From Euglena gracilis (lineage: Eukaryota), in assembly GCA_039621445.1 (NCBI GenBank), contig CP154954.1, forward strand, positions 22,580,954-22,644,953: a DNA stretch of 64,000 nucleotides, given 5' to 3'. The notes beneath the pieces were generated by a model. It did not search any database. It was given only the letters and a program-made list of their open reading frames with translations, and had not been told where the DNA came from. Of this stretch, positions 7,401 through 10,400 are shown piece after piece. The translations under genes were made by a program, and so were the position numbers. Numbering within the stretch: the first letter of the stretch is position 1; each line of letters opens with the position of its first letter.

Positions 7401-10400
7401 CTCCGGGACAAAAACGTTTCCAAACAGATCCGAAATGACATCTTGGAATTTTTTGGCAAACCTTTGTCGAAATGACCAAAAATTTTCGGCGCAGAGCACC
7501 GGAAAGAAAAAAAACTTGACCTTATTGGGGGACCAGGTTGGCCCCCCGGAGTGAATCCGGACCCCCCCCCCGGGGTTCCAGACCCCCCGGAGGGGGTCCA
7601 GGGCTGCAGGGGAGGGGGCTGTGCTGGGCTGGGTCGATGAAAAAAACAAAAAATTCTAACACATTTTTGCCTTCTCGACATTTTGGTGGATGGAGCTAGA
7701 TCAAGGCAGGGGGGCTGTGATGGAGGAAGCTGTGATGAGAAAAAAAGGCAGTAGGTGCCCGGTCCAGGAGGGTAGGAAGCCTCCCAAATGAAGCCGGGAA
7801 ACCCCCGTATGCCGAACCCTGGCGTGGTGCACAAGTGTGCCAAACCTCACCCCCCCCCCCCACAGCGCCGCACGGGTGCGGGCCGCAGCCCCCTCCCCCC
7901 GCCCACCCTGTCGCCGGGCCCGGCCCCCTCAGCAGCGCCCGGGAGTCCCCGGCGTTGGCGACCCACAGCGTGCCCCGGCGCAGCACGGCCACCAGGGCGG
8001 TGGTGCCGACCCGGGCCGGCTCGTTGTTGAGCGAGACCCGGCGAGGCCGCCGTTCAGCGCCGGCCGATTGGGGAGGGGCCCAGTGCAACGAGGCACCGTT
8101 GGCAGCGTTGGGTTGGCCCTACAGCAGGGGGGGGATCATTGAGTATAGCCGGGGGCATTGGGGTGTGGTGGGGTGTGTAAAATACACCCTTACACGCTGA
8201 AGTGTTCGTTTTCACACACACCAAGAAAAACATGTCGCACATGCCAATATGTCGATGACAACAAAACACAAGACACAAACAAGAAACAAAAAATCAAGCA
8301 CAAATCAACAAACCAGAAGATCAAAAGACATAGACAGAAGAAAATGATTCAAAACCAAGAGAATTCTTTTAAAAATAACGAGATCAGAAAAAAGAAGCAG
8401 AAGAGAAGAGAAGAGAAGAGAAGCCCAAAAATGCGAGGAAAGAGACATGCATGGCTTTGTAGGTGCAATGGCACAGGATGAGCTGCATATGGACTTTCCC
8501 ATCACACACGGGAACACTGCCTGAACAGCAGCCTGGCCCCACTCCCGGATCCGCTTGTCCGTCACACGGAAGGCGTCGATCAGGGCGGCCTGCAGGTCCA
8601 TCGGAGGCATGGCCTGGCATGGCATGGCAGGGGCTCCTGACAAACTGTCCTTCACCAGGGGGGACCACTACCTCCCAGTCAGAAAGGAGTCAGAAAACAC
8701 CCAGTGCTGGATGAGGCCATTTCTCGCTTTCCAGGACTGGCGGGGCGCTGATGAAGCCACAAAAAAAATACACACCGTGTTTCTGTCAACTGAGTTAACA
8801 ACAACACAACGCAGCGTGTGCTTTGAGATTATCGTTCTAAATAAACAATGGCAAAAAGGACTCCCCAACGAAACGGTGTTGGCAGTGGCCATGGGTGGGT
8901 AGCAGCCGGAGGTCACGAGCAGGGTTCGATATAAGGACAGGTGGGGGGGTCCGGACCCCCCCCCCCTGCGGGCCAGGGGGGGGGGGGGGGGGGGGGGGGA
9001 CACCCCCCCCCACCTAAACAGTGGCGCGGTCTGGGTGACCGAAAATTTTTGACCCCCCAAAACGACCAAAAGTGCCATTTTGGGCACTTTTGGGGCAAAA
9101 ATGTGCCAAAAATGCAAAAAAAATTCGGCGCAAAGCGCCGGAGGAAAAAAATTGACCCTTTTTTGGGGGGGGGGTCCCGGATACCTCCCCAGGGTCGGTC
9201 CGGACCCCCCTGGCAGGTGGGGGGGTCCGGACCCCCCCCGCCAGCCAACTGGGCTGCCCAGCTCACCTATCCCTGCATTTTTTCCCCTCACCACAGTTTC
9301 CTCCATCACAGCCCCCAGCCTTGATCTAGCCCCATCCACCAAAATGTCGAAAATGGCAAAAATGTGTTAGAAAATTTTGTTTTTCACCGACCCAGCCCAG
9401 CCCAGCCCCCTCCAGCCCCGGGGTGGGGGGGGACACCCCCCCCACCTAAACCATGTACGCCGTCCTTATATCAAACCCTGGTCACGAGGTTGTGGAGCAT
9501 CGTGTCCCGAGCGTAGGCGGCGACTTCCGTCCCAGGTGGAGGGGCCGGGGAATGCCTAACCGAGGAGAACCCCCATTCAAGTAATTTCACAGTCGGGTTG
9601 AGCGGACTGTGCGCATGAATGGAGACAAACAGCCAAACAGGCCTCGGGGCCCAGGCTGCACACACCGGGCCGCATGGAATGCAAAACAAGAGACCAGGGA
9701 TGCGTGCCTCGTTCTGCAGTCCTCCTATGGCTGCAGCCTCCGGAGGGGGGGCTTTGGCGGGGCCCCCCCAGACGCCCCGTGCCCGTCGAAGAGCCCCACC
9801 ACCGCGTCGTCCAGCACGCCGTCCCCCGCCAGCCCCTCCTCCGCGCTGCGGCCCGCCCCCGCCCACGGCGGCTTCTCCTTCGTCCGCGTGGGCGTCCCCG
9901 TCAGCCAGCGGCCCCCACACACCCCACCTCGCCATCCAATTTCCATAAACCTCCAGCATTCTTACCCATCCCTCCTCACCAGGATGCGGGTAGGGGTCGA
10001 GCCCCCCCTCGTGAGAATCCCCCATACGTACATACATACAAACAACACATACATACAAACAAACAACACATGCATACATACATACATACATACATACATA
10101 CATACATACATACATACATACATACATACATACATACATACATACATACATACATACATACATACATACATACATACATACATGCATGCATGCATGCATG
10201 CATGCATACATACATACATACATACATACATACATACATACATACATACATACATACATACATACATACATACATACATACATACATACATACATACATA
10301 CATACATACATACATACATACATACATACATACATACATACATACATACATACATACATGCATACATACATACACACACACACACTTACTTACTTACTTA

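Follow-up and report, generated by a model that had tools for sequence, protein, structure and literature searches.

A repeated terminal-inverted-repeat element within PP2C coding sequence of Euglena gracilis is missing from mRNA and is probably removed as a nonconventional intron

We examined 64,000 nucleotides of Euglena gracilis DNA (assembly GCA_039621445.1, contig CP154954.1, positions 22,580,954 to 22,644,953 of the forward strand; hereafter the window, numbered from its first base), in which a 561-bp transposon-like element at 8920..9480 lies within the coding sequence of a gene encoding protein kinase, response-regulator receiver and PP2C domains. An exon peptide from 7900-8118 (minus strand) was used as a query against transcriptome protein collections and retrieved two proteins of ~1155 aa. 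One of these, P0001 (EG_transcript_705 by its source label), maps to the minus strand of the window as 36 collinear exon blocks between 32569 and 1572, most of them 100% identical; the mapping covers all but the last ~70 residues. The host gene so defined (1572..32569, minus strand, 36 mapped exon blocks) encodes 1158 aa, with Pfam matches to Pkinase (residues 51-306), Response_reg (348-464) and PP2C (797-992). A preliminary description of this DNA had placed the element inside PP2C coding sequence, which both the P0001 mapping and the Pfam PP2C match confirm.

The element carries no strand assignment and is non-autonomous and resembles a transposable element of the miniature inverted-repeat type (MITE), as judged from its terminal inverted repeats (TIRs), its target-site duplication (TSD) and its repeat depth. 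The left TIR, CAGGGTTCGATATAAGGAC, occupies 8920..8938 on the plus strand (19 nt, 0 mismatches), and the right TIR, at 9462..9480 on the minus strand, matches it at 18 of 19 positions, with one mismatch; at either end the terminus is CAGGG. Directly outside the TIRs stand two copies of the direct repeat GTCACGAG, at 8912..8919 and 9481..9488 (no strand), which in this copy are identical at 8/8 positions. The order read from the window across 8911-9488 is accordingly GGTCACGAG, CAGGGTTCGATATAAGGAC ... GTCCTTATATCAAACCCTG, GTCACGAG. A repeat finder reports the inverted arms as 8917-8938 and 9462-9483 and the exact direct repeat as 9 nt, GGTCACGAG, at 8911-8919 and 9480-9488; it is 9 nt rather than 8 because the final G of the TIR is the same as the base preceding the left TSD copy. 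The anatomy first described from the letters alone, a 561-bp element with 19-nt TIRs starting at CAGGG and a perfect 8-bp TSD, is thus upheld. The interior consists largely of G/C runs and short internal repeats; its longest stop-free frame (129 aa) is of low complexity, and the element is too short for a transposase.

The terminal structure is not a chance pairing. With up to three mismatches allowed, the 19-nt terminus has two matches in the 64-kb window, one per strand, with 0 and 1 mismatch, against a chance expectation of 0.00 (100 shuffles). A window-wide scan for TIRs of at least 12 nt with at most one mismatch, combined with a TSD of at least 7/8, returned 57 raw matches: 50 overlapping matches within a TA/TG microsatellite (19639-19819), six with arms of 12-14 nt that are mostly G/C-rich, and this element. 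Each of 20 dinucleotide shuffles gave 0 or 1 match (1 in four of the 20), and this near-zero expectation argues that the TIR/TSD structure is real.

Read on the minus strand, the 8-bp site corresponds to codons L827-V828-T829 of P0001, and LVT is encoded on either side of the element (9530..9480 and 8919..8896). Retention of the element leads to a stop two codons inside it (...HNLVTRV and then the stop codon). Removal of 9483..8915 instead yields ...MLHNLVTSGCYP..., identical to the transcript-derived protein, which reads HNLVTSGCYPMDLQ across the site and ...MLHNLVTSGCYPMDLQ... over a longer stretch. The upstream exon (9484..9531, minus strand) contributes codons from about T813 to V828 and the AC of T829, and is covered by the RNA contig described below. 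On the other side of the element the exon is only 18 nt long (8914..8897), and the mRNA runs on as MDLQ after the next intron; the proposed restoration of HNLV-TSGCYPP therefore holds for the reading frame, while the second P of TSGCYPP is intronic. The element's insertion has left this 18-nt micro-exon (8897..8914, minus strand; placed from the best helix of the following intron and from the RNA contig) between two nonconventional introns, I28, which contains the element, and I29, and it is correctly kept in the mRNA. I29 (8603..8896, minus strand) reads acc-CATGGCC...GGCCATG-cctcc followed by G and is single-copy, with a DNA depth of about 77.

To follow the element in RNA and DNA, region 7000-9960 was compared with a set of DNA contigs (X1), a set of contigs presumed to derive from RNA (X15) and two sets of raw RNA-sequencing reads (X21 and X24). 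A 4068-nt X15 contig (record 13) matches 7930-8036, 8538-8604 and 9773-9897, and between 8604 and 9480 it contains solely GTAGCAGCCGGA (8899-8910), which is 12 of the 18 bases of the micro-exon, present between the flanking pieces. This joint implies an mRNA composed of the upstream exon, one copy of the 9-nt repeat, the micro-exon and the next exon. The same element-removing joint is found in six raw X21 reads with six different start sites and in one X24 read, and every spanning RNA record observed is fully spliced. The expectation that transcripts lack the element together with one TSD copy is therefore borne out, by the X15 contig and by seven raw reads. For the predicted junction at 9484|8914, removal is seen across the site; the exact cut is hidden by the repeat. 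The portrayal of a transposon "caught becoming" an intron was overstated: because all the spanning RNA records are fully spliced, the element is already a working intron.

The element is also present in DNA at both of its junctions. X1 contig 4 (651 nt, depth 77.4) begins in unique sequence at 8295, crosses the left junction and reaches 8941, 22 nt inside the element, and X1 contig 5 (depth 64) covers 9458-9566 and spans the right junction. Both are unbroken at the TSD, and their depth is as high as that of the unique flanks (48-77), which is unlike a heterozygote of filled and empty sites. These data bear on the possibility that the insertion is hemizygous or polymorphic, in which case intact mRNA would come only from empty-site alleles and the filled allele would be null. 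Allelic variation does exist: heterozygosity in the E. gracilis draft genome is given as 2.2-2.6% (PMC6366073), X1 holds two haplotype contigs at 9537-9661 (depths 28 and 52.5), and X21 RNA contains both A and G at 8566. A filled/empty branch, however, would break the junction contigs at the TSD, and no such break occurs at depths of 77.4 and 64. Among the best 15 of 112 X1 joints there is no empty-site joint, nor any of the transcript splice joints 8036-8538, 8604-9480 and 9530-9773. The allele with G at 8566, moreover, is contiguous with the element in X1 contig 4 and is the one found in the spliced X15 transcript (130/130). We regard a polymorphic insertion as very unlikely.

The protein sequence is compatible with 11 placements of I28, ten of which yield an identical mRNA. 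Since the duplication is perfect, the cut sites are hidden in mRNA and in circular intron alike, and the placement must be inferred. The code N3-CDG...CH'G-N5-6|R was defined through knock-in mutagenesis by Nomura et al., who report that the 3-nt spacer is intolerant of +1 or -1 changes and that a 3' spacer of 5 nt is preferred (PMC12501133). Only one of the 11 placements, 9483..8915, has the arrangement N3-CAG..CTG-N5 before a purine, and in it the split 8-mers agree at 8/8 positions; it is here that the cuts probably lie. The intron so placed (8915..9483, minus strand, 569 nt) reads gac-CAG...CTG-ctcgt followed by exon G. Its ends are CAGGG...CCCTG, with CAG at +4..6, CTG at -8..-6 and T|G (Y|R) at both junctions, as had been anticipated. 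The recurrence of one Y|R dinucleotide would follow from the two cuts being made at an identical position within each copy of a single 8-bp site. Starting from +4/-6, the intron ends form an unbroken helix of 21 pairs, in which the TIR mismatch becomes a G.U pair on the sense RNA. In the predicted fold of a 609-nt sense RNA, the TIR helix closes the intron (-315.2 kcal/mol, z = -3.65, with 0 of 20 shuffles as good). The fold also pairs two UCGUGA stretches of the TSD, which self-pair because the site is nearly palindromic; we attach no weight to this.

Ordinary spliceosomal removal through non-canonical or cryptic sites deserves consideration at this point, given that Ds elements are reportedly spliced from maize transcripts (Giroux et al. 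1994). None of the 11 protein-compatible placements of I28 offers GT/GC-AG, and removal is exact to the base. All the other resolved introns of the gene are likewise non-GT-AG (a GT/GC-AG placement exists for 0 of the 34) and share the same end-helix geometry. The knock-in work, in addition, shows that CAG/CTG pairing and the spacers are what is read (PMC12501133), and we consider splicing of this kind exceedingly improbable.

We propose, and consider highly likely, that a transposon is here removed as a nonconventional intron whose geometry equals the length of its duplication. A short non-autonomous cut-and-paste transposon would have inserted into PP2C coding sequence and generated, through a staggered cut, an 8-bp duplication. 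In the pre-mRNA a 21-bp helix beginning with the pairs CAG/CTG would form between the two TIRs, and the pathway would cut 3 nt beyond its 5' side and 5 nt beyond its 3' side. Because 3 + 5 = 8, the length of the TSD, the excised piece would be the element plus exactly one TSD copy, and the original reading frame would be restored. The insertion would thus not be lethal to the gene, because a nonconventional (non-spliceosomal-type) pathway removes the element from the pre-mRNA. We infer this RNA-level mechanism from a locus at which the anatomy of a transposon, the multiple copies bordered at the TIR ends, the presence in the genome and the exact absence from mRNA are all observed.

The element belongs to a very abundant repeat family. 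Summed X1 word depth is ~1.3-1.6 million over 8980-9474, compared with 53-84 in the unique flanks, a ~10,000-fold difference. Inward from 8919/8920, 13 + 36 X1 contigs (49) match the element, and their outside sequences are mutually unlike (agreement 0.47 and 0.38). The multi-copy interior and these 49 contigs diverging at the TIR tip dispose of the concern that the TIR might be single-copy. RNA reads diverge in the same way, five X21 and five X24 reads at 8920 and six X21 reads behind 9481. These divergence points place the limits of family similarity at 8920 and 9480, the tips of the TIRs, and not at 8915 and 9483, where the intron ends. That similarity should end at the TIR tips is what a DNA transposon predicts and what spread of an intron at the RNA level does not.

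This border speaks to another possible origin, in which the intron spread as RNA, by reverse splicing of a circle and reverse transcription, or arose as filler DNA in double-strand-break repair, an origin proposed for the gapC intron of E. agilis. Nonconventional introns are removed later than conventional ones. They are released as full-length circles (PMC11282704, PMC12621601), and Milanowski et al. in 2016 read an 8-nt junction repeat as a possible footprint of break repair (PMC4770533). Reverse splicing would bring along the old 3-nt and 5-nt ends and create no duplication, whereas the 8-mers here agree at 8/8 and the family's similarity ends short of the intron ends. TIRs with a duplication of fixed length are the staggered-cut signature of TIR transposons, and the 19-nt TIRs and fixed-length duplication at this locus bear the mark of a transposase. 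RNA-level spread or filler DNA is hardly probable as the origin.

The family is not uniform along its length. At 9240 there is a further loose end, with high agreement (0.74-0.98), in 30 X1 contigs and 33 X21 reads; the sequences that join there share a different, well-agreeing sequence leftward and have only the right 240 bp in common with the element. A commoner relative therefore shares only 9240-9480, and the present copy probably represents a deleted or chimeric derivative. The 19-nt TIR search (at most three mismatches) found no second element copy in the 64-kb window, and an all-against-all comparison of 34 introns of the host gene found no second intron copy of it. That comparison revealed shared internal repeat pieces only, linking I28 with I31 and I24, I19 with I31 and I32, I24 with I31, and I16 with I18. 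Pieces of the element interior recur in I31 (7420-7757) and in I24 (14138-14518); over 7611-7757 in I31, identity with a portion of that interior stands at 87%.

Two other identifications were considered and rejected. Three single TIR matches were found in metagenome contigs of 30-57% G+C, which contain neither a partner TIR (at most five mismatches) nor any other similarity to the element; by rough estimate their number is compatible with chance. An Rfam search of 8500-9900 at E <= 1 returned nine weak matches in the G/C-run part, far under gathering scores, and a tRNA search likewise found none, so the element is neither a known RNA nor tRNA-derived.

The assignment to a "hAT/P-like" group was not established, as an 8-bp TSD suits hAT and Merlin alike and no transposase is linked to the element. 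It may be hAT-like, to judge from its terminus and TSD length, or a Merlin element. With hAT elements of the Ac/Ds type it shares the 8-bp TSD; its terminus CAGGG fits the hAT motif YARNG and the Ac terminus, and the site CTCGTGAC fits a hAT target pattern, nTnnnnAn. Two Merlin families are described from E. gracilis, with 8-bp TSDs and near-perfect TIRs, and Merlin elements in general are given TSDs of 8-9 bp, a conserved terminal 5'-GG-3' and TIRs of 24-462 bp (PMC8101967). The 8-bp TSD of the present element lies within that range; its CA terminus and 19-nt TIR differ from the terminal GG and the TIRs of at least 24 bp in this account of Merlin.

Several points weigh against the proposed course of events. 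On the side of the DNA, contigs lose rare variants and X1 may be the very sample behind the window's own assembly, so that a rare allele with an empty site may exist; the evidence on X1 joints concerns the best 15 of 112; and X1 and X15 are different samples, which makes the link between DNA and transcript through G at 8566 an indirect one. On the side of the RNA, the 9-nt repeat means that no RNA product shows the cuts and that the 3+5 placement is by analogy alone, and unspliced or circular forms of this copy are indistinguishable from those of other family copies. As for the family, summed contig depth does not give copy number, part of the high depth comes from related families (as the loose end at 9240 indicates), no TSD has been read from any other copy, and the element has no linked transposase.

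We then considered whether the other introns of the host gene share the geometry of I28. From the protein, 34 of the 35 host introns were resolved, with exact translations; I13 (22538..22122) is left out of all counts. The arrangement N3-CDG...CH'G-N5/6 fits 19 of the 34, of which 15 are CAG..CTG and 17 are followed by an exon that begins with a purine. Counted fractionally, 16.25 of the 34 introns have their longest end helix at a summed offset of 8 nt, compared with 4.0 for the next best of 17 offsets. The view that the consensus of nonconventional introns amounts "simply" to a TIR terminus and a split 8-bp TSD accordingly gains suggestive support from this one gene, in which offset 8 is found in about 16 of 34 introns.

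If the other introns were older insertions, traces of their duplications might persist in the last 5 exon plus first 3 intron bases as compared with the last 5 intron plus first 3 exon bases. With I28 excluded, mean identity between these 8-mers is 3.12 in 33 introns, compared with 2.75 for a null of shuffled pairs (P = 0.035). It is 3.32 versus 2.80 in the 25 introns with a helix of at least four pairs at +4/-6 (P = 0.011), and 3.35 versus 2.67 in the 17 with at least six pairs (P = 0.009); control exon 8-mers just outside share 2.16 identities. The repeat excess among the other introns is modest and comes from one gene. The clearest single case is I17 (19916..19595, 322 nt, minus strand), which has a 16-pair end helix and a split 8-mer matching at 6/8 (ATGCTGAC versus ATGTGGAC) and looks like an older MITE-type insertion. 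The helix of I17 reads CAGGCTTCTTTT..., and a TA/TG microsatellite lies inside the intron. The suggestion that the other introns are insertions with decayed duplications is thus compatible with both the group of 25 introns and I17, and is suggestive only, one gene being at hand.

Target sites were reconstructed from the 5 + 3 exon bases around 26 introns, I28 among them, with P values uncorrected for the number of positions. Position 2 is T in 12/26 (background 0.16, P = 3e-4), position 7 is A in 12/26 (background 0.19, P = 0.002), positions 6-8 are GAC in 8/26 (background 0.019, P = 2e-8), and position 6 is a purine in 24/26. A downstream R-A-C has been published, with a purine in 55/55, A in 43/55 and C in 30/55 (PMC4770533). 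We met no mention of T at -4 in the literature consulted. In the intron-side halves, judged by eye and untallied, A at +2 occurs in about 7/26 and T at -4 in about 4/26. This absence of the pattern from the intron side fits decay without coding constraint, but a splicing or survival filter would account for it just as well; the target-site pattern itself could instead reflect a filter of this kind acting on insertions.

Taken beyond this locus, the 3/5-nt spacing could be the imprint of a class of transposons with 8-bp TSDs and CAG-ended TIRs, with most nonconventional introns being such insertions, the pathway tuned to remove the element plus one TSD copy in either orientation, and the exon consensus representing a target preference. 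We put this forward tentatively, as something we judge possible and somewhat less than even in its chances. If it is true, the weak exon consensus (T at -4; G-A-C downstream) would be a transposase's palindromic target preference, retained through coding constraint, and not a signal for splicing. The more general claim of a transposon origin, which here rests on one gene, is plausible.

A MITE origin of nonconventional introns, mentioned in the preliminary description, is in print: it was proposed in 2014 (PMC3935182). A recently gained, strain-specific intron of the E. agilis gapC gene has been described with eight-nucleotide direct repeats (PMC4770533), and the legend to Fig. 3D of a 2024 review draws CAG/CTG as TIRs and the junction repeats as a TSD (PMC11282704). 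Nomura et al. in 2025 reported that 84.4% of introns bear short direct repeats and called the origin of the introns unclear; in the same paper the MITE origin is a suggestion from inverted repeats only (PMC12501133). Nonconventional introns account for ~72% of the introns of one sequenced Euglena genome, and for ~70% of all introns in E. agilis. In the literature we searched, with subscription journals and supplements outside the search, we found no named repeat family with intact TIRs and TSD tied to a spliced nonconventional intron, and no statement of the 3+5 = 8 arithmetic. The present case adds a strong new example to a hypothesis already in print and brings no new principle. What is new relative to the literature searched is the combination of a repeated TIR element, an undecayed 8-bp TSD, a conserved coding domain and exact removal backed by RNA, together with plain arithmetic that would account for the odd spacing of 3+5.

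In most respects I28 resembles other euglenid nonconventional introns: it lacks GT-AG and has paired CAG/CTG, 3-nt and 5-nt spacers, Y|R, an exon G-A-C and exact removal. It differs in being an intact copy of a repeated element whose helix spans 21 bp and whose TSD is undecayed, whereas those introns, in the published accounts drawn on here, are mostly unique, with short helices and repeats. Intron 4 of gapC in E. agilis strain ACOI 323, in the published account drawn on here, is given no link to a repeat family, and the repeat at its junctions is discussed as a break-repair footprint (PMC4770533). The likeness extends to a further group, the introners, which Huff et al. are said to have described as introner elements in 2016. 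In Micromonas, Aureococcus and others, as the review has it, a non-autonomous transposon inserted in an exon creates an intron and one TSD copy stays behind (PMC11282704). Introners have TSDs of 3 bp or other kinds, act as introns in many genes through near-identical copies, and depend on the spliceosome for removal at GT/GC-AG, in contrast to the present element, for which the signal would be the TIR helix and the route the nonconventional pathway. The question of origin becomes countable genome-wide, through TSD length, 8-mer decay with intron age, splicing in both orientations and a target-site logo.

The remainder of the window is rich in repeats. No second cellular gene was recognised in 32.6-64 kb, and from 37.8 kb onward there are retroelement-like open reading frames (ORFs) and tandem arrays. 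Over 37824-64000 the G+C content is 0.62-0.70, and several long, closely similar frames (37824-41477, 42051-44906 and 59235-63998) are retroelement copies upstream of the host gene; the last of them has an RVT_1 match (E 1.1e-7, residues 959-1034). At about 51100-55300, ORFs recur at a period of ~522-525 bp, which suggests a tandem array. Upstream of the host gene lies (GA)x102 (37567-37771), and within its introns are (ATGGT)x132 in I8 (27267-27928), (CATA)x123 in I26 (10023-10518) and a 163-bp unit repeated 5.8 times in I31 (5895-6835). Repeats at 7000-7395 and 7594-7791 in I31 reach a summed X1 depth of about 0.4 to 3.6 million.

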